Under the pieces are notes generated by a model. The model had not been told where the DNA came from and did no database searches. It saw only the letters and a program-made list of their open reading frames with translations. From Bdellovibrionota bacterium (GTDB lineage Bacteria; Bdellovibrionota_C; UBA2361; JAAYZI01), in NCBI GenBank assembly GCA_050950765.1, contig JBMNIF010000002.1, positions 96,001 to 160,000 of the forward strand: a stretch of 64,000 bases of DNA, in the 5' to 3' direction. Made by a program: the position numbers and the translations under genes. Numbering within the stretch: position 1 is the stretch's first letter; every line of letters starts with the position of its first letter. Positions 34,538-43,907 of this stretch are shown here, one piece after another.

Positions 34538-35875
34538 TTATAAATATCCTAAGCTTTTTAATTCTCTTATCTGTTTTTTATTAAACTCAATCTGTGGCTT
34601 ATCGTTATCAGTTTGTAATTCTACTTTATTGGAAAAATCCATCATCTCTTTTTTCAGAAGTTCTATCCTAGTTTGGTAACTTCCCTCATTTATAAGATCA
34701 TTTTCTTCTAAAGGATCTAAACTAAGATCATAAAACTCATAAGTATTAGTCTTTCTATCTAAAATCAATTTATCTAATTTTTTAATTATGGCAATTTTAT
34801 CTACATTTCTAATTTTTTGCGCAGATTTAAACGAGACCTCTGCAAAAACAGAACGTGAGGCAGGGATCTCTTTTGTTTTTATTAAATCGATCCCCAAAAG
34901 TGGGGAGCTTTCGTTGAAGAGACCTAAAATAGTGGGAAGGATATCTATCTGAGAAACATTACCGCGAATAACTTTATGACTTAAATTTTTTGCCCTGATT
35001 AATAATGGAACATGCATTAGTTCGTTATAAAGAGAACGGGTGTGTCCTATCCAACCTCTATCTAAAAGCTCCTCTCCGTGGTCTGCCGTAAAAATAATAA
35101 TGGTATTATCCAGCAATTTTGAGTCTTCAAGATATCTGTATAGACGCAACAAAGCACGTTCTGTAAAAGTTATTTCTTCGTGATAGAGGGCGTTTAATTG
35201 AATTTTATCAGTTTGAGTAAAGGTAGAAGATTTTCTAACAGCAACTATATCTACATCGCCTGAAAAAACGCCTTTATAGTTTGGGTCTGTATAGTAGATA
35301 TCAGAATGATCCTTGTAATTTATATGTGGATCAAAATAATGAGCGAACATAAAAAAAGGCTTTTTTGGATCTCTTGCTTTTAAAAATGAAATGACCTCAT
35401 CTGTAACAAGGTCACCAACTATAGTATTGTGCTGATCTTTTTTATTGACGTTTTTACAAATTTGAAAATCTTTCGTTATTCCACTGGATCTATTAATAAT
35501 CGAACTCGAGATTACAGACATACTTTGGTATCCCTTTGTCTGTAAATAGTTAGGAATCGTCTTGATATTATCTGCTAGGACACTACTCATCTTTGTTACA
35601 CCATGATCCCTTGGATATAACCCCGTTAAAATGGTTGCTACGCTAGGTTTTGTCCATGAAGAAGCAGCATAACTATCACGAAAAATCCAACTATTTGGTG
35701 AGATTGTCTTTAAAAATTCGCTTTCGATTGTAATTTCTGAGTTATACAAAGGCAGATGCTTTGCAGCTAAAGTATCTACAACTATCAAAAGAATATTAGG
35801 ATCTTGTTGAGCCTTTTTTGTGCAAGAAGTAAACGCAAATAACAAAACTACTGCCGCAACAAAGAATTTACGCAT
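34538..35875 (-). CDS. Sulfatase-like lipoprotein (alkaline phosphatase superfamily)
   Basis: Lipobox FTSC, PNILLIVVDTL, WTKPS...LTG (Thr in place of the CxPxR Cys), HYFDPH, TADHGE, LKSLGYL. Confidence 0.85.
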   Translation of the reverse strand: MRKFFVAAVVLLFAFTSCTKKAQQDPNILLIVVDTLAAKHLPLYNSEITIESEFLKTISPNSWIFRDSYAASSWTKPSVATILTGLYPRDHGVTKMSSVLADNIKTIPNYLQTKGYQSMSVISSSIINRSSGITKDFQICKNVNKKDQHNTIVGDLVTDEVISFLKARDPKKPFFMFAHYFDPHINYKDHSDIYYTDPNYKGVFSGDVDIVAVRKSSTFTQTDKIQLNALYHEEITFTERALLRLYRYLEDSKLLDNTIIIFTADHGEELLDRGWIGHTRSLYNELMHVPLLIRAKNLSHKVIRGNVSQIDILPTILGLFNESSPLLGIDLIKTKEIPASRSVFAEVSFKSAQKIRNVDKIAIIKKLDKLILDRKTNTYEFYDLSLDPLEENDLINEGSYQTRIELLKKEMMDFSNKVELQTDNDKPQIEFNKKQIRELKSLGYL

Positions 35876-35940
35876 AAATATACCCTTTATGATAAATCTA
35901 AAAGGTAAATAATATGCCGAGATTATATTCTGTCAAATTC

Positions 35941-35973
35941 ATTTCAATCCACGCGCTTCGTAAGAAGCGCGAC
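35941..35973 (-). CRISPR. Solitary type I-C CRISPR repeat
   Basis: Minus strand GTCGCGCTTCTTACGAAGCGCGTGGATTGAAAT: 5' GTCGC, 8-bp stem, 3' GTGGATTGAAAT, the layout of I-C repeats. Confidence 0.8.
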
Positions 35974-36037
35974 AGTAAAATCATTAGATAAAAAGCATTT
36001 TACTTTTTTTATCCTTAATGATTTTTATTACATCTTC

Positions 36038-36143
36038 TAGACTATAATATTTCAGGCTTCCCAGTTCAATATCCATTATTCCTTCAATCTGATGCCTCAA
36101 AGTGGCGAACTCTGCTGTAATAATCACGCACTAAAAATATAGA
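36038..36143 (-). pseudogene. cas2: Fragment of a type I-C cas2
   Basis: Hand translation: SIF/(frameshift)*CVIITAEFATLRHQIEGIMDIELGSLKYYSL, resembling the I-C Cas2 pattern SVFEC...F..L...L..I.D...DSLR.Y.L; lies upstream of the lone I-C repeat on the same strand. Confidence 0.6.
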
Positions 36144-36158
36144 TTAAGTTAATCTATA
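36138..36158. terminator. AT-rich palindrome at the trailer end of the V-A array
   Basis: tatagattaa-g-ttaatctata. Confidence 0.4.
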
Positions 36159-36463
36159 ATTACATTCCCCCTTTTTCATTTTTAATAAGGAGCATATCTA
36201 CAATAGTAGAAATTTAAATAAGACCTTAAACTCGCACCTCGCGTGAGGTGCGTGGATTATCTACAATAGTAGAAATTTAAATAAGGTCTTAAACTAACAT
36301 AGCGCTATCTAGCCCACTGATATCTACAATAGTAGAAATTTAAATAAGGTCTTAAACAGATATAAATATCTGGAACTGTGCTGGTTCAGCGTGAAATGGA
36401 CATTTGAGGTGCTGAAAAAAGCTACTATAATAGCCTGAGTGATATTAACTAATGGGGTGAATA

Positions 36464-36769
36464 ATGGGAAAACATTTTAGTGCAGAAGATAAGGTTAAGA
36501 TACTGAAGGAGCATTTATTAGGAAATAAGCCGTTATCGAGTTTATGCGATAAATACGGCGTACACATTAGTACATTTTATGAATGGCAGAAGCTATTATT
36601 TGAGGGAGCTATCCAAATTTTTGAGCGGAATAAAAATGGTAGGAAAGAAGAAAAGAAGCAAGCTGAACGGATAGATATTTTGGAGAAGAAGCTAACGAAG
36701 AAGGATTCTGCGCTAGCGGAGCTTTTGGGGCTTCATATAGATTTAAAAAAAAAGCTTGGGGAGCTTTAA
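36464..36769 (+). CDS. IS3 OrfA (HTH plus leucine zipper)
   Basis: FSAEDKVKIL...CDKYGVHISTFYEW; ends at an A9G slippery run (36745-36754) overlapping an AAAGCT/AGCTTT hairpin. Confidence 0.85.
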   Translation: MGKHFSAEDKVKILKEHLLGNKPLSSLCDKYGVHISTFYEWQKLLFEGAIQIFERNKNGRKEEKKQAERIDILEKKLTKKDSALAELLGLHIDLKKKLGEL

Positions 36770-36804
36770 CGAAGCGTTGGGTTGAGCCACAAATACGAGA
36801 TGAG

Positions 36805-37767
36805 GTGATAGATTTTGTACATGAATGGCAAGAGAAATCAGAAATGAAGCGGGAGATGTTTATAAAGAGGTTAGGGATAACACGGAGCAAGTACTATGCT
36901 TGGGAAAAACATTACGGTAAAGAGAACTTTCATAACGGGCTAATTCCGAGAGATTACTGGCTATTACCCAGTGAAAGGGAGGCTATTATTAAGTATTATT
37001 TAGAGCACTCAAGAGTAGGTTATCGAGCATTAACATACATGATGCTTGACGCAGATGTTGTGGCAGTATCCCCTGCGACGACCTATAGAGTATTGAAAAG
37101 TGCTGGCTTAATGCGTTGCTGGAATGGTTTAAAAAGCAAGAAAGGGACAGGATTTGAACAACCACTTAACCCGCATGAACATTGGCATACGGATGTTTCA
37201 TATATCAATATTTGTGGCACATTTTACTATTTTATTGGAGTTTTGGATGGATGTAGTCGGTATTTAGTTGCATGGGACATTAGAGAATCGATGAAAGAAA
37301 TAGATATTGAAGTAGTATTACAAAAGGCTAGAGAAAGTTTTCCAGACGCAAGACCGCGAATTATTTCAGATAACGGTTCAGCCTATATTTCAAAAGAGTT
37401 TAAGAATTTTATAAAGATATCTGGTATGACTCACGTCAAGACATCACCGTTCTATCCACAATCGAACGGTAAGATGGAGAGATTTAATGGGACATTAAAA
37501 GTAGAAGCGATACGACCTAACACTCCAGTATCACTTGATGATGCGAAAACTATAGTGAGTAAGTTTGTCGAAGAATATAACAATCAGCGGTTACATTGTG
37601 CGCTAGGTTATATAACACCAAATGATAGATTGAATAACAAGCAAGAGGAGATATTTAGAGCTCGAGACAGCAAATTGGAAGCTGCTAGAGCACATCGCAA
37701 GTTAGTAAGAGAGGGGTACCCCTCTCTTACTAACTACAACATTGAACAACAAGCTCAGGTGTGTTAA
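36805..37767 (+). CDS. IS3 OrfB DDE transposase (fused to OrfA by -1 frameshift)
   Basis: WHTDVSY, ISDNGSAY, SNGKMERFNGTLK. Confidence 0.92.
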   Translation: MIDFVHEWQEKSEMKREMFIKRLGITRSKYYAWEKHYGKENFHNGLIPRDYWLLPSEREAIIKYYLEHSRVGYRALTYMMLDADVVAVSPATTYRVLKSAGLMRCWNGLKSKKGTGFEQPLNPHEHWHTDVSYINICGTFYYFIGVLDGCSRYLVAWDIRESMKEIDIEVVLQKARESFPDARPRIISDNGSAYISKEFKNFIKISGMTHVKTSPFYPQSNGKMERFNGTLKVEAIRPNTPVSLDDAKTIVSKFVEEYNNQRLHCALGYITPNDRLNNKQEEIFRARDSKLEAARAHRKLVREGYPSLTNYNIEQQAQVC

Positions 37768-38209
37768 CTAGGGTTTTGTGGCATGACAAAAGTCCATTTC
37801 CATCAGAGGCAGAACAGAACCACGATATATCTACAATAGTAGAAATTTAAATAAGGTCTTAAACATTCCGAAAAGTACTCCCACAACCTTATCTACAATA
37901 GTAGAAATTTAAATAAGGTCTTAAACACCTATGAGGACGGATCTTATAGTTTTATCTACAATAGTAGAAATTTAAATAAGGTCTTAAACGTTAGTTATTA
38001 TTCGAGGCAAAGGTAAAATCTACAATAGTAGAAATTTAAATAAGGTCTTAAACTAGTTATTCTAATAATAATTTAATCTTATCTACAATAGTAGAAATTT
38101 AAATAAGGTCTTAAACGATAAATCGCAGAGTTAAAACAGCCCGATCTACAATAGTAGAAATTTAAATAAGGTGATCTACAATAGTAGAAATTTAAATAAG
38201 GTCTTAAAC

Positions 38210-38334
38210 CCTTACGGTTAATAACCTTATCTTTTTTGTATGATTTTTACCAGAAAAACCACTTTTTTTGCCAAATTTAGTCAATTTAAGACCTTATTTT
38301 TCACATTTCCAAAATTAAGACTGAGGTTTGCATC
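38210..38334 (-). promoter_or_regulatory. CRISPR leader
   Basis: AT-rich gap between the cas2 stop and the first repeat; contains a 15-nt inverted copy of the repeat 5' end. Confidence 0.75.
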
Positions 38335-38610
38335 TCAATCTACGACCAGTATGTCAGCATTTTCATTTTCTGCATAGCCCCAACGTGTGATTTTACAATT
38401 TTGACTAGTTTCTATTATTATTACACTATCTGTTTGGCTAAATCGTTTTTCAAAATTATTCGTTATTTCATTCATTATATTATCAAGCAAACGTTTGCTA
38501 TTCTTTATTTTAAATACTGAATATTGCAGTCGATAACCAAATTTTTTTAGATACTTTGAAAAATGAGTTCGCAATTTATTATCTTGTATGTCATAACTAA
38601 TTATTATCAT
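38335..38610 (-). CDS. cas2: Cas2
   Basis: IISYDI, RLQYSVF. Confidence 0.95.
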   Translation of the reverse strand: MIIISYDIQDNKLRTHFSKYLKKFGYRLQYSVFKIKNSKRLLDNIMNEITNNFEKRFSQTDSVIIIETSQNCKITRWGYAENENADILVVD

Positions 38611-39574
38611 AAGAAATCACCGCTTTTGGAAATGTATCTATATCCTTCCCCTTCATAAACCATCTGTAATATTGCTGAATATAATCAAATATAATTGTCC
38701 TGTTTTTTACTATTTCTTCTAAGATTAAAATTATAAATTTTCTACTATCCTCCCAGCTTAAATTATATTGATAGTTATTAATAATAAACTTATAATTTTT
38801 TGCCTGCCCAAGATTTATAATTTTTCTTATTTTATAATCAATAATCGGTCTAAATGGCTCTATTATATCACACACTAAAGACTTTCTCTTATAAAACTCT
38901 TTGTGCAGGTTCCCTTTATAAACATCAAATCCGTAGATATTTAATATTGCTTCCAAATAATTAAACAAAACAGTATAGCCGATATCTAATAATAAATTTA
39001 TCTTATCCCTTTTTATCCTCGGCTGTCTGCCATGCCACTCAAAGTCTTTAAATAAACGATTAAAATATACCTTAGCCCCAACTCCCTCATATCCCATTAT
39101 CTCATAAGAAGTAATTTTAGCATTATTTTTGATTTCTTTAATCAGTTCTTCTAAATTTTTTATTCCATCAAAAACACTCTTATCTCTTAATTTTTTTAAT
39201 ATAAATACCTGATTTTCAATCTTATTTATTATAATTTGTTTTGCAATTTCAGTTTCATTTATATTTGTATATTGCTTCTTTCTTAATAGAGTATTGCCTT
39301 CAAGCGAAAAATTAATTGTTGAATACACTTTAAAACTTGCTGAAAATAAAACAATTGAAAAACCAAATTTTTTACTTCGTAGTATTATTCCTGAAGTAAG
39401 AGTTATTCCCCCCACAACAAACACAGCAAATAGCCTATAACAACTAAGTTGTACTTTTATCTTTTTATCTGAATCCGTTATTACTATATTATCATTCTTA
39501 AATGATATTTTATCACCATCTTGAGGAAAAACTAAAATAACCTTCTTTTCTATAAAATCAGGCTTTGTTAACAC
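38597..39574 (-). CDS. cas1: Type V-A Cas1
   Basis: MGYEGVGAKVYF, NLLLDIGY, GNLH, SLVCDIIEPFR. Confidence 0.95.
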   Translation of the reverse strand: MLTKPDFIEKKVILVFPQDGDKISFKNDNIVITDSDKKIKVQLSCYRLFAVFVVGGITLTSGIILRSKKFGFSIVLFSASFKVYSTINFSLEGNTLLRKKQYTNINETEIAKQIIINKIENQVFILKKLRDKSVFDGIKNLEELIKEIKNNAKITSYEIMGYEGVGAKVYFNRLFKDFEWHGRQPRIKRDKINLLLDIGYTVLFNYLEAILNIYGFDVYKGNLHKEFYKRKSLVCDIIEPFRPIIDYKIRKIINLGQAKNYKFIINNYQYNLSWEDSRKFIILILEEIVKNRTIIFDYIQQYYRWFMKGKDIDTFPKAVISYDNN

Positions 39575-40128
39575 ATCAAACTCCTGTCACAAGCAGGTTC
39601 ATATATACATTTTTTACATTTTTCCACATTTGTTTGCTGAAAATTTTCCATATTAAATTCATGTATTTCTTTAATGAGCGCCTTAAAACGATTATCCATA
39701 ATAAGATCATCTCTAGGTAATAAAATGTCGTAATTTTTATTATCTTTCAAACTATGGAATCTGATTTTTTTAACATCATAGCCCATTTCTGAAAGTGCAT
39801 AATATTGTGCATAAACTTGAAAAATATATCCGTCATATATGGTAGTAATTTTATTTTTCCTCTCCGTTAAAATGCCTTTGTCTATATCAAAAACATCTAT
39901 TTTCCCCCGTATCCCAAAAGTTTGAGAATAAACATCAATCCCTTGCAATATATTTTTTTTATCTGAATAAGAGCTCTTATCAATTGTTTTATGTGCATTC
40001 ATGCCGTCAATTTGGCAAGTTGATTGATAAAGATTTTTATCTAATGCCCCGTATAATTTATGAAAATAGATTGATACAGGACAAAAGATAAAATCATTTA
40101 AATAAGAGATAAGGATAATTTCTTCCAT
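39568..40128 (-). CDS. cas4: Type V-A Cas4
   Basis: NDFIFCP, GKIDVFD, ERK, QVYAQ, CKKCIYEPAC. Confidence 0.95.
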   Translation of the reverse strand: MEEIILISYLNDFIFCPVSIYFHKLYGALDKNLYQSTCQIDGMNAHKTIDKSSYSDKKNILQGIDVYSQTFGIRGKIDVFDIDKGILTERKNKITTIYDGYIFQVYAQYYALSEMGYDVKKIRFHSLKDNKNYDILLPRDDLIMDNRFKALIKEIHEFNMENFQQTNVEKCKKCIYEPACDRSLMC

Positions 40129-40130
40129 TT

Positions 40131-43100
40131 TTAGGCTTTATCTAATCCTTGTACATAAGAAAGCCACTCTTGTTTATTTATGGCAAAATTAACTTTCCTT
40201 CCAGTTGATTCTCTAATTCTTTCTAATATCATCAATCCTTTTCGTGCAATATTATAAGCGCCATTTGCATCCGCATCTAACGGTAAGTTTTTATCTTGTT
40301 TCCTTGAATCATAAAATTCTCCAGACTTATTTTTCACAGGAGACAAAATATAATCTTCTCTTGAATTTGTTATACTATTTCTTAACTGTAATAGTAACTT
40401 AAATAAAGAATAAAATCCTAAGTAACCATCCTTTTCTTTTGTCGCACTAAAAAATTTCGCTTTTTCATTTTGGAGTATACCTTCTTTTATACGGCTTAAG
40501 TCTATCTCATATCTTTTAAATAATTCTTTAAACTCATCTGTTAAATTTATTTCTTCATTATCCCAATTACTATTTTTTTCTGGATTCCTAAAAGAACGGA
40601 CTCTTTCTCCATAAGAACAAAGAGTCCACTCATCTCTTATTCCATAGCTTCCGCCTGTAAAATTAGAATATTTGAATATAAATTCAAAATAATTTTCTTC
40701 TTCGTTATATCTTATATCATCAAATTTTTCGATAAAACTTTTATCAACTTTTTTTAAATCAAATAAATTTACAAAGCCTGTTGTCGGGTCAATCTTGCTT
40801 GTGCACCAAGCAGGAATATAAAAAATGACTCCATTTTGTGCACCTTTAGAATCAGGCTTTGCAAGTTGATAAGCATTTAGTATACCGCCTTGATCTTTTT
40901 TATTAGCAACATCCTTACTTATAAGATAAGATAATTTATTTACAAGCATTGTTTCAAATTTATCATAAACCTGTTTTTCAACTTTTTTTCGAGAATTTTT
41001 AAATCCTCCACTTAAGTCTTCAAGCACAATTATTGCATTATATTTAAGCATAAGCTTAACAATCTTATGAACAACTTGGCTCATATAACCTTCTTTGAGC
41101 TCTTTTATTGTTTCAATTTGATCCCAGCTTTTCCTTGCCTCATCCCTATCTTTTTCTTTTTTATTAAGCGCTGCACGATAATCTGTTTCATATGTAACTC
41201 CATTATATTCATTAACTATATTATTAAGGGAGCACTGTTCAACAATTTCACCTTCTGAATTAATAACAGATAAATAAATTAAATGTCTTTCCCCTCTGTC
41301 TATCCCTATAAGATAAATATCTTTGTTTGCTTTTAAACTATCGTTAACAATTTCATTAATATTATTAAATCCTTTACATTTAAAATTCATCGCCACAGGA
41401 ACATGAAATAAAAATTTATCTACTGAATAGCGCCTATCTTTTATTAAATCATATTCAAACTTACTTTCTTTTTTTGGATTTTTTTCATTTTTGTTTGGAA
41501 TAGGTTCATTAGCTGGATGTGTAATTTTTGCCTCTATACTTTTTTTCCGATAAAAAATTTCTGCTTGACCATTTAATTTATAGACGACATCTTTTAAATT
41601 ATCTTCATCAAATAAGGCTTTCCAATACATTGTATGCAAATTAGGTTTTCCCTTACTGTATTCTGAAAAATCCTTATTGTAGATTTTAAATAGATACAAT
41701 TTCCCATCATTAACTAATTGATCTATATAACCTGCAGAGATGTTTTTAAAATTTATTTTATACCCTTGTTGCTCAACTTCTTTATAAAATTGGCTTATAT
41801 CTTCATATGAAGATGTTTCACTAAATCTAAAATTAAATTTTTTCCAATCATCATGTTTTTCAATAGATCTTTTAAAAAAATCTATTAATTCATGACAAAA
41901 ATCTATATCAAATTTCTCCCCCTTTTTATGACACCCGTCTTGATATTTCTCTAATAATTCAACAGATGGATTAAAATTTTCTCTTCCCTTCTCAGATGAA
42001 ATAAAAACTTTCGGCAACATTTTATTAGCACCAGGTAATAGTTTATACTCCATCTTTTTATAGCTGTTTTTTTGATCTAGTTCTTCCCCTATTTCACTAA
42101 AAATTCCCCTATCCCTACTATCTATAATGCCCAAATAATAAATTCCGTTTCTTTCAAATATCGTGCATGAATTGTCTTTTTCTTTATTTAAATCCCATCC
42201 ATCTAAAAGAGTAGGGTTTTTAAAGTTAAGCTTCATCTTCTCAGTCGAATACGGTTTTTGAGTTAAATAATTTCTCACCTTATTATAAAGAGGAATTATT
42301 TCTTTCAAATCGTCGTATCTCAATAATTCATAAAAATTATTATCAGTTTCTATCTCTTCAACTTTCGGGACTAAAAGTTTTACAAAGTCGTGAAGCTCTT
42401 TTAAATTATCAAGAAAATTTTTAATTATATTTTTTTTAGCTCCATCTTTAACTAAATTTTTTAATCCTTCTCCATAATCTTCATTTTGAATTTCATCAAA
42501 CTTTTTATAAGCCTCCTCTATTCCTGATTTAATGCTTTTTATAACTGACCCATTTGGTTCAGTTTCACAAACCATATCGCTAGTTAAATGCTCTTCAAAA
42601 TATTTTATAAGCTTCTCTTTATTTTCTTTATCATATCTCAAGACGAGGCTTTCAAGGTATTCAACAGATAATACTTTATCTTTCTTTAAGCACTTTCCTC
42701 GCTCTGCAATATATTTTTCAGAATCGATATTTTTATTTTTCCCTGTATAATTTTCATTATATTCCCTTTCTCTTAGACTATTGAGATAGCTCCAATCGTT
42801 ATAAATCTTCTTTGATATATTTGTTAAGGACTCAGCATTAATATAAATTTTACTTAACTCAAAATCTCTTATATTTTTAAATGCATAAACAAGTCCTTTG
42901 TTCTCATTACTAAAAAGTAGATCATTAATTTTGATATAGTAATCTTGGATCTCTTTTATCAACTGTTCATCATCTTCAATCTTATCAATTTTAAATGAAG
43001 CTGTATTTGTATCACTTAGTATCTGTTTATATAAAAGTTTTAATTTAGGGAGTTTTTTACTTTTATCTTCTTGTTGATTTTGATTATGTAAATTTACAAG

Positions 43101-43907
43101 CTCATTTATTCCTTGAATTTTCTTATTCCCTTCTTCAGTTTTTCCAGAAATCGCAAGATTATAATTTTCTATCTGATCTTGTGTAAGGATATCTTTATAT
43201 TTTTCTACAACACTAAATAATTCATCTGTATTTAAGCTTAAATTTCTTTCTATTTTATCCTTAATTTCTGGAATTGCTTCTTTTATTTTTTCAAAATATT
43301 TTATATTTTTTATAAAAGTTGGTAAATTTTGATCGATCAATCTAAATGATATGGCTGTAGATTTATCTTCTTTTGAATAAAAATTTTCTCTATTCTTATT
43401 ATAACCTGTAAAATATGTTGTGAATTTATTAAATATTTCTATATCACTTAATACTTCTTTATCCTCGGCGTAAAAAACTTTTAGATAAGAATTGATGATC
43501 TCTTTACCAAACAGCCCTTTATATTCATCATCCTCTGTAAAACTTTCAGAAATCATTGTGCGTAACTTTTCTTTAACTTTATTAAGAGGCGAATCTTCTT
43601 TATTACTTTTATTTTTACTCTGTGTATCTGTTTTTAAAGTTTCTATATATTCTTTTTCATATTCTTTTAATAAACCAGCAAAAGCATCGTTGCTATTTAA
43701 TTTTTTCAAACATCTATCTATAAAAATTTTATGATACTCATCACAATATTTTTTAACGACTTTAAACTTTTCTGCTTTTAGCTCATCTTCTTCTAGAATA
43801 TTTTTCTCAAAATATTCTTTCGTTCTGCCTTGCGGCTGCAATTCAAATCTCAATGTTTTTGAAACTTGGTATAAATTGTGCATTTCATCAAATAATTTTT
43901 TACTCAT
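40131..43907 (-). CDS. cas12a: Cas12a (Cpf1), 1258 aa, catalytic motifs intact
   Basis: YQVSKTLRFEL, YKLLPGANKMLPKV, RuvC IGIDRGERHL / VLEDL / DADANGAYNIARKG, RNase region THPANEPIPNKN. Confidence 0.98.
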   Translation of the reverse strand: MSKKLFDEMHNLYQVSKTLRFELQPQGRTKEYFEKNILEEDELKAEKFKVVKKYCDEYHKIFIDRCLKKLNSNDAFAGLLKEYEKEYIETLKTDTQSKNKSNKEDSPLNKVKEKLRTMISESFTEDDEYKGLFGKEIINSYLKVFYAEDKEVLSDIEIFNKFTTYFTGYNKNRENFYSKEDKSTAISFRLIDQNLPTFIKNIKYFEKIKEAIPEIKDKIERNLSLNTDELFSVVEKYKDILTQDQIENYNLAISGKTEEGNKKIQGINELVNLHNQNQQEDKSKKLPKLKLLYKQILSDTNTASFKIDKIEDDEQLIKEIQDYYIKINDLLFSNENKGLVYAFKNIRDFELSKIYINAESLTNISKKIYNDWSYLNSLREREYNENYTGKNKNIDSEKYIAERGKCLKKDKVLSVEYLESLVLRYDKENKEKLIKYFEEHLTSDMVCETEPNGSVIKSIKSGIEEAYKKFDEIQNEDYGEGLKNLVKDGAKKNIIKNFLDNLKELHDFVKLLVPKVEEIETDNNFYELLRYDDLKEIIPLYNKVRNYLTQKPYSTEKMKLNFKNPTLLDGWDLNKEKDNSCTIFERNGIYYLGIIDSRDRGIFSEIGEELDQKNSYKKMEYKLLPGANKMLPKVFISSEKGRENFNPSVELLEKYQDGCHKKGEKFDIDFCHELIDFFKRSIEKHDDWKKFNFRFSETSSYEDISQFYKEVEQQGYKINFKNISAGYIDQLVNDGKLYLFKIYNKDFSEYSKGKPNLHTMYWKALFDEDNLKDVVYKLNGQAEIFYRKKSIEAKITHPANEPIPNKNEKNPKKESKFEYDLIKDRRYSVDKFLFHVPVAMNFKCKGFNNINEIVNDSLKANKDIYLIGIDRGERHLIYLSVINSEGEIVEQCSLNNIVNEYNGVTYETDYRAALNKKEKDRDEARKSWDQIETIKELKEGYMSQVVHKIVKLMLKYNAIIVLEDLSGGFKNSRKKVEKQVYDKFETMLVNKLSYLISKDVANKKDQGGILNAYQLAKPDSKGAQNGVIFYIPAWCTSKIDPTTGFVNLFDLKKVDKSFIEKFDDIRYNEEENYFEFIFKYSNFTGGSYGIRDEWTLCSYGERVRSFRNPEKNSNWDNEEINLTDEFKELFKRYEIDLSRIKEGILQNEKAKFFSATKEKDGYLGFYSLFKLLLQLRNSITNSREDYILSPVKNKSGEFYDSRKQDKNLPLDADANGAYNIARKGLMILERIRESTGRKVNFAINKQEWLSYVQGLDKA

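Follow-up and report, generated by a model that had tools for sequence, protein, structure and literature searches.

The oldest spacer in a type V-A CRISPR array matches a type I-C CRISPR repeat at a putative Cas12a PAM

CRISPR systems are usually viewed as defences against phages and plasmids. What, then, does it mean when the repeat of one CRISPR type turns up as a spacer in the array of another? This question is raised by a 64,000-nucleotide stretch of DNA from a Bdellovibrionota bacterium, which we call the window in the following and number from its first letter. On its minus strand it encodes a complete type V-A locus, consisting of cas12a, cas4, cas1, cas2, a leader and an array, and the leader-distal spacer of this array reads as part of a type I-C repeat. 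We consider it probable that the locus captured this spacer from an I-C repeat with its own Cas4-Cas1-Cas2 proteins, that it thereby gained a guide with multiple target copies, and that the spacer is now a fossil.

The effector gene, cas12a (40131–43907, minus strand), encodes a protein of 1258 residues with REC1, REC2, PI, RuvC and Nuc domains. It matches the Pfam families RuvC_1 (2.4e-91), REC1, NUC, cas_Cpf1_2nd and Cpf1_PI-like, and aligns end to end with the solved structures of Fn and Lb Cas12a (E about 1e-270). The adaptation genes lie on the same strand: cas4 (39568–40128), cas1 (38597–39574) and cas2 (38335–38610; 45 bits). Cas4 and Cas1 score above the cut-offs of cas4_PREFRAN (221 bits, cut-off 70) and cas1_PREFRAN (359 bits, cut-off 300), which are NCBI models for type V; given these matches, a hybrid locus with a V-A effector placed on a I-C adaptation module and array was rejected. 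Cas12a occurs in just one of 124 genomes of the phylum, that of the window, and the locus, perhaps together with its oldest spacer, may therefore have arrived by horizontal transfer.

The array (36196–38209, minus strand) comprises nine full repeats and a truncated one, together with eight spacers of 27, 27, 19+8 (split by an insertion sequence, IS), 26, 27, 28, 27 and 27 nt, with a mode of 27 nt; V-A spacers of Fn are, in the accessible part of the source, mostly 27–29 bp long (PMC13034035). Read on the minus strand, the 36-nt repeat has the Cas12a handle (...AATTTCTACTATTGTAGAT) at its 3′ end, a stem-loop of the form TCTAC-loop-GTAGAT, with the guide located 3′ of it. The leader region (about 38210–38334, minus strand) was assigned from its position between cas2 and the first repeat; since the gene positions place the leader at the cas2 side, the spacer at 36232–36258 is the leader-distal and hence the oldest one.

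Within the sixth spacer sits an IS3-family element (36377–37816, plus strand, 1440 bp) with HTH_Tnp_1 and rve reading frames (36464–36769 and 36805–37767) and a 4-bp duplication, GAAC; further copies of this IS are present in the genome, and its 24–25-nt end recurs with 100% identity at four other sites. The element cuts off the three oldest repeats from the leader and may block transcription of the unit formed by the oldest spacer, and no strong outward promoter was seen near this unit in a promoter scan. The unit thus stranded downstream of the element occupies the trailer end, which is the most deletion-protected position of the array. At the leader end (38144–38209, minus strand), only 1 nt, and no spacer, separates a full repeat from a following one that is 7 nt short at its start; this anomaly may stem from an aberrant integration or be the scar of a deletion. 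For the other seven spacers, protospacers were found neither in plasmids nor in the genome itself, and phages yielded only weak or repeat-driven matches.

The oldest spacer (36232–36258, guide on the minus strand) reads TCGCACCTCGCGTGAGGTGCGTGGATT on the plus strand, which corresponds to positions 2–28 of a I-C repeat; in the sense of the crRNA, the guide starts with AATCCACGCACCTC.... It has the modal length of 27 nt and lies, in a regular 63-nt period, between two V-A repeats: a regular one (36259–36294, minus strand), which supplies the crRNA handle for this guide, and the terminal one (36196–36231, minus strand), which retains an intact handle and is a 2-nt variant that reads GGTC on the minus strand where the others have GACC. 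The 5′ part of this variant exactly complements the 5′ part of the preceding repeat, and in the RNA fold predicted for 36196–36294 (−35 kcal/mol, z = −6.9), a 10-bp helix encloses the last handle together with the I-C hairpin.

The guide contains a hairpin that may impair Cas12a loading or R-loop formation. Folding of the spacer reproduces this hairpin, which an earlier note, made from the letters of the stretch, had described at the trailer end: its 8-bp stem is closed by a loop of 4 nt, the folding energy is −14.9 kcal/mol (z = −5.1), and none of 200 shuffled sequences folds as well. Rfam returned no match for the spacer, a role of the hairpin as a terminator was discarded after a terminator scan of the region showed none there, and our literature search, subscription journals aside, found no paper on guide structure.

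The spacer unit is real and not an assembly artefact, since a contig from an independent digester metagenome study (run X4) covers 35700–36286 with no differences; this also answers the concern about a chimera that had been voiced at the outset. Moreover, 14 studies of digesters, bioreactors and related habitats together provide 20 public runs in which the stretch 35880–36376 is present, including three runs that may be the source of the window DNA. None of these runs is listed with RNA data.

Where else does this sequence occur? We scanned one genome per species for the pattern GTCGCACCTC-NNNN-GAGGTGCGTGGATTGAAA(T/C), in which the four loop bases were left free, and obtained 47 loci with arrays of such repeats. 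In 11 of them, distributed over six assemblies (Enterococcus, Ca. Egerieisoma, Marasmitruncus, and MAGs of Acidaminococcaceae, Akkermansia and Cloacimonadota), the repeats are identical to the spacer at 26 of 27 positions, a match that, judged by sequence comparison, is beyond chance. These arrays are of type I-C, since Cas8c is encoded, with scores above the cut-off, in all five genomes tested, in several of them within a few kb of the arrays. The spacer also fits the general form of the I-C repeat, which consists of GTCGC, a GC-rich stem of 7–8 bp, a 4-nt loop, the second half of the stem and GTGGATTGAAA(T/C).

The proposal that the spacer equals positions 2–28 of a I-C repeat is thereby borne out in real repeats from six assemblies. 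The search of repeats and genomes with the spacer, which had been suggested with it, retrieved these 26/27 arrays but no exact repeat: the GCGT loop of the spacer occurs in none of the 47 loci, and no exact 27/27 protospacer was found, the best match being 26/27 in the species genomes, with none in viral contigs and only partial ones in plasmids.

The boundaries of the match speak for the way in which the spacer was acquired. TTTV is reportedly the PAM of Cas12a. In nearly all I-C copies among the matches listed, the matched part is preceded by G and followed by GAAA(T/C), which on the reverse strand places TTTC directly before the guide. This TTTC, found before the matching 27-mer in I-C repeats as well as at 35942–35945 of the window, fits the TTTV rule and would, by analogy, be a PAM for the Cas12a of the window. 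The I-C repeat has no other TTTV on its two strands, and the first base of the guide is the base after this one, as acquisition by Cas4, Cas1 and Cas2 in a Cas12a system would lead one to expect; by our estimate, a boundary flush with the PAM would arise in about 1 in 28 of the offsets and strands that give a mostly repeat-derived 27-mer. The PAM-dependent acquisition from a I-C array that the earlier note had envisaged agrees with this boundary, and capture from such an array at a PAM-consistent site is well supported.

The identity of the sequence, its boundaries, the repeats on either side, the type of the locus and the occurrence of the stretch in independent samples are observed. We favour the following course of events, in which the acquisition route, the PAM preference of this Cas12a, the expression of the unit, the cleavage and the identity of the source replicon are what we infer. 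The Cas4-Cas1-Cas2 proteins of the locus would have taken up a piece of a I-C repeat and trimmed it flush to the reverse-strand TTTC. The repeat of the source array would have read GTCGCACCTC-GCGT-GAGGTGCGTGGATTGAAA(T/C), which differs from a divergent I-C remnant located 259 bp away (see below). If transcribed and processed, the unit would yield a crRNA with a handle of 19–20 nt followed by AATCCACGCACCTC..., and this crRNA would direct Cas12a to cut all repeats of a matching I-C array, be it on a plasmid, on an ICE or in a formerly resident array. Such a multi-copy guide would not be easy to evade by single point mutations. The logic of one guide for every repeat seems to follow directly from the letters of the spacer, and a function of the guide against I-C arrays is plausible. 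Today, the unit would be the fossil of a past clash with a I-C-bearing replicon; we favour this reading because the genome contains no full target, the unit lies behind the IS, and the hairpin may weaken the guide.

A mobile element as the source, one of two origins proposed in the earlier note, gains credit from the fact that I-C arrays travel on plasmids, as evident from a Bacillus cereus plasmid that carries cas3-cas5c-cas8c-cas7c (with cas5c, cas8c and cas7c annotated) and arrays of similar repeats, but no array with an exact match was found in plasmids. Within the phylum, the spacer occurs, at up to three mismatches, in one of 124 genomes, namely the window genome itself, and in none of the other 123, while any I-C repeat of the general form is present in 4 of 124, the window genome included. 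Together with the single occurrence of Cas12a, these counts indicate that both V-A and I-C systems are sporadic arrivals in this phylum.

The second proposed origin, a former array of the host, leads to the region downstream of the V-A trailer. A lone I-C repeat (35941–35973, minus strand), the sole one in the genome, lies 259 bp from the spacer, runs forward on the minus strand, and is thus in tandem orientation with the V-A array. The guide matches it at 19 of 27 positions, with TTTC at 35942–35945 (plus strand) followed by an unbroken PAM-proximal match of 9 nt; the eight mismatches consist of two compensated stem pairs and the four loop bases. These values reproduce the count, the compensatory stem differences and the TTTC that were reported initially. 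The repeat is the only PAM-bearing partial site for the guide in the genome. Cas12a is sensitive to mismatches, and cleavage at this site would therefore be unlikely. Rfam yields only a sub-threshold match of the repeat to CRISPR-DR9 (15.6 bits, gathering score 45). The repeat is the remnant of a real I-C array, since run X7 shows two copies of it separated by a 33-nt spacer, whereas the window and X4 have one repeat. The site is accordingly a shrinking orphan array in tandem downstream of the V-A array, and the genome (2.64 Mb, 94% complete) contains no cas8c.

Runs X12 and X13 contain related strains whose flank differs at nine of 481 nt. In these strains, a G>A change at 35955 brings the I-C repeat one step nearer to the guide (20/27). 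In their contig, position 36182 is joined to 38174 via 14 nt, and the V-A array is reduced to a single repeat, with neither spacers nor the IS; this one-repeat allele may be ancestral or the product of a collapse.

Directly downstream of the lone repeat, 5 nt past its end, lies a strong sigma-70-like promoter match (35909–35936, minus strand; TTGACA, 16 nt, TATTAT; 11/12), which faces a sulfatase gene (34538–35875) and is located upstream of it. The partial PAM-bearing site of the guide hence adjoins a promoter-like match of the sulfatase gene and not the promoter of a cas gene, where regulatory crRNA-like guides (CreR or scaRNA-like) typically pair. A Cas12a parked on the TTTC and the 9-nt seed site would cover the upstream edge of this promoter match.

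Could the spacer, then, have been an accident of autoimmunity? It might have been taken from a I-C array that resided directly downstream and collapsed, either accompanied by self-cutting or with tolerance once the I-C cas genes were lost, and it would never have served in defence. The tandem remnant next to the V-A trailer, its polymorphism (one repeat in the window and X4, two with a spacer in X7), the 20/27 variant of X12 and X13 and the missing cas8c are all in keeping with such a course. Likewise, decaying I-C arrays can mix repeat variants, including compensated ones, as on the B. cereus plasmid, and in a metagenomic pair of loci described below (L061/L067), an array at the allelic position has a repeat to which a V-A guide corresponds at 21 of 25 positions. 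However, 8 of the 27 positions, in two compensated stem pairs and the whole loop, distinguish the surviving repeat from the spacer; the host's former array as a source gains some support from the remnant, but the sequence of that remnant argues against it. Furthermore, I-C repeats of the guide type were not found in the other 123 genomes of the phylum, and with Cas12a in one of 124 genomes, the locus, perhaps along with its oldest spacer, may have been acquired by transfer. We thus regard an autoimmune origin as unlikely and retain capture from the repeat of a I-C array that the guide could match in full.

Capture as a one-off event does not predict that similar guides recur at the trailer ends of V-A arrays in other lineages. 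In 241 million metagenome records, a search for V-A handles with AATCCAC(G/T)C directly behind them, a pattern that forces the first nine bases of the guide, retrieved 11 loci. In ten of these, the guide continues with AATCCACGC[A/G]CCC, a loop and a decayed second half of the stem, whereas the eleventh (L063) is an ordinary mid-array spacer. The ten I-C-like loci, which are known from their arrays and flanks alone, represent at least five lineages as judged from these flanks. All seven that have an array (L057, L058, L059, L060, L061, L062 and L064) carry the guide after the last or second-last handle; of the others, L065 and L067 are single units and L066 is a mini-array of two units without a V-A array. 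Companion guides that start with AATTCC... or AATCCCC... stand beside the I-C-like guides. In L059 (1–1130), the V-A array is an orphan with no cas2 upstream, and its first repeat is cut where a fragment resembling the start of a transposase gene abuts.

L061 and L067 are allelic contigs, with downstream flanks identical at 357 of 398 positions and unrelated upstream flanks. In L061, the V-A array contains more than 20 spacers, and its second-last guide matches the other-type repeat of L067 at 21 of 25 positions, after GTTTC. In L067, the V-A array is replaced by an array of this other type with 30-nt repeats, of which 17 exact copies were seen, about 310 bp from the lone V-A unit.

In the PAM-distal halves of the ten guides, we count about 2–4 changes per 7–9 positions, mostly G>A by our reading, while none of the ten shows a change at the four unforced positions that follow the searched 9-mer. 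This pattern suggests either selection on the seed or ascertainment bias, and as evidence for conservation it is only suggestive, because the search pattern required the first nine bases. A survey of V-A arrays had been recommended in the earlier note. Of 401 evenly sampled Bacteroidales genomes, 15 encode Cas12a; in 15 regions from this sample, none of 250 guides starts with AATCCAC, and only one starts with AAT(C/T)C. In a second order, the motif was found in none of 401 genomes.

One way to account for this recurrence would be that V-A loci keep, at their trailer ends, guides against the conserved 3′ region of class 1 repeats, with which Cas12a would bind rival or co-resident arrays; decayed guides would only bind, intact ones would cut, and the unit of the window would be an intact case. 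Such a role is suggested by the ten of 11 loci that continue I-C-like, by the guide's place after the last or second-last handle in seven of seven arrays alongside three stand-alone units, and by the spread over at least five lineages with unrelated flanks. The companion guides, one of them with its 21/25 match to another array type after GTTTC, and the four intact positions past the searched 9-mer next to changed PAM-distal halves point in the same direction. Yet most of the apparent seed conservation stems from the intact 9-nt start that the search demanded, such guides are rare, as seen from the 250 Bacteroidales guides and the 401 genomes of the other order, and no target array is tied to any of the loci except in L061/L067. 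Moreover, old trailer-end spacers are known to persist without function, and the guide in the window is a full-length match and not one confined to the seed. This makes a conserved guide function of this kind quite improbable for the window.

For the window, we thus return to capture by the V-A locus itself. The stem of its guide, ACCTC/GAGGT, is perfectly paired and differs from the ACCC/GGGT of the metagenome guides, which indicates a separate capture and not drift from the others. Nevertheless, a one-off capture is not the whole story, because other V-A arrays likewise have I-C-like guides at their old ends; across lineages, they could go back to one ancient acquisition at the trailer end or to several founding acquisitions.

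Finally, that the unit is no spacer at all, but a chance look-alike, an assembly chimera or a joint left by recombination between V-A and I-C arrays, is very hard to maintain: the region is indeed rearranged, with a lone I-C repeat nearby and an IS in the array, but the sequence matches many real I-C repeats at 26 of 27 positions, is flanked by V-A repeats on both sides at the 63-nt period, has a PAM-flush boundary, and is found identically in an independent contig, with the surrounding stretch present in 20 runs from 14 studies, three of them possible sources.

How does the spacer compare with known cases in which CRISPR systems meet one another? To our knowledge, the only spacers described as directed at other CRISPR systems are anti-cas spacers, which are said to occur in the residual I-F arrays of E. 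coli. For these residual I-F ('Ypest') arrays, it has been proposed that their anti-cas spacers bar or disable incoming CRISPR-Cas elements (Touchon and Rocha, 2010, PMC2886076). Going by the accessible portions of this work, they are the closest parallel, as they are likewise aimed at another CRISPR-Cas system and likewise reside in old, short or residual arrays. By contrast, they match cas genes of the same subtype and stand in arrays without cas genes, whereas the spacer in the window matches a I-C repeat and belongs to a V-A locus with complete cas genes. It therefore does not share the defining property of anti-cas spacers, a match to a cas gene of an absent cognate system, and, unlike them, it would find a target in each repeat of the rival array.

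Self-targeting spacers and the resulting CRISPR autoimmunity have reportedly been described as well. Like the spacer in the window, such spacers are non-viral and possibly of chromosomal source, and loss or mutation of either the target or the spacer is expected; here, however, the source is a CRISPR repeat with a PAM in its conserved 3′ handle, and no full target is left.

Conserved solitary repeats are also a frequent feature of V-A loci; most of them lie upstream of cas12a, and no conserved pattern of targeting is reported for them (Shmakov et al., 2023, preprint, PMC10120712). In the accessible sections of this preprint, crRNA-like mini-arrays resemble the metagenome and window units in their degenerate repeats at the edges of loci and in guides that pair partially, but the guide in the window is a full-length match between two handle-bearing repeats; these sections make no mention of guides that resemble I-C repeats.

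A further relative is found in the RNA anti-CRISPRs of phages (Racrs), which are solitary repeat units (Camara-Wilpert et al., 2023, PMC10651486). As far as the available parts of that report go, they likewise turn CRISPR repeat sequence against a CRISPR system, although Racrs are decoy repeats of the system that they inhibit, whereas in the window the repeat of one system is stored as the guide of another. Methanosarcina virus MetMV (L119, 14855–14886) carries one intergenic copy of the 3′ part of the V-A repeat with an exact handle, and a hairpin with a T run lies about 60 nt beyond it; by analogy, this unit would be a solitary repeat of the kind proposed as RNA anti-CRISPR. The crAss-like phages cr55_1 and cr1_1 have a weaker match to the V-A repeat inside a reading frame.

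Searches of the full-text literature, subscription journals aside, returned no description of spacers that originate from, or are directed at, repeats belonging to a different CRISPR system. What is new here is the presence of one CRISPR type's repeat as a spacer in another, and the recurrence of I-C-like guides at the ends of V-A arrays. Pipelines that assign targets to spacers commonly discard matches within arrays, and spacers that target repeats may be under-reported for this reason.

The implications may extend beyond this locus. Judging from their sequence, class 1 repeats that end in ...GGATTGAAA(C/T) carry a reverse-strand TTTC, which would be a ready PAM for Cas12a; through this conserved 3′ handle, whole families of arrays would be structurally exposed to V-A systems. 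It is conceivable, though doubtful, that some V-A systems keep guides against such repeats at their old end, with intact guides shredding the targeted array and decayed ones binding it and blocking its transcription. If true, this would constitute a layer of conflict or cross-regulation between CRISPR systems and could explain repeat-derived guides as the founding spacers of several V-A arrays. With a guide equal to a repeat, a competing immune system, or the mobile element that carries it, would be eliminated or silenced, and evasion by single mutations would be hard, because every repeat of the array is a target. If the recurrence at trailer ends is real, it would also bear on how arrays are founded and on why one CRISPR type replaces another in genomes.
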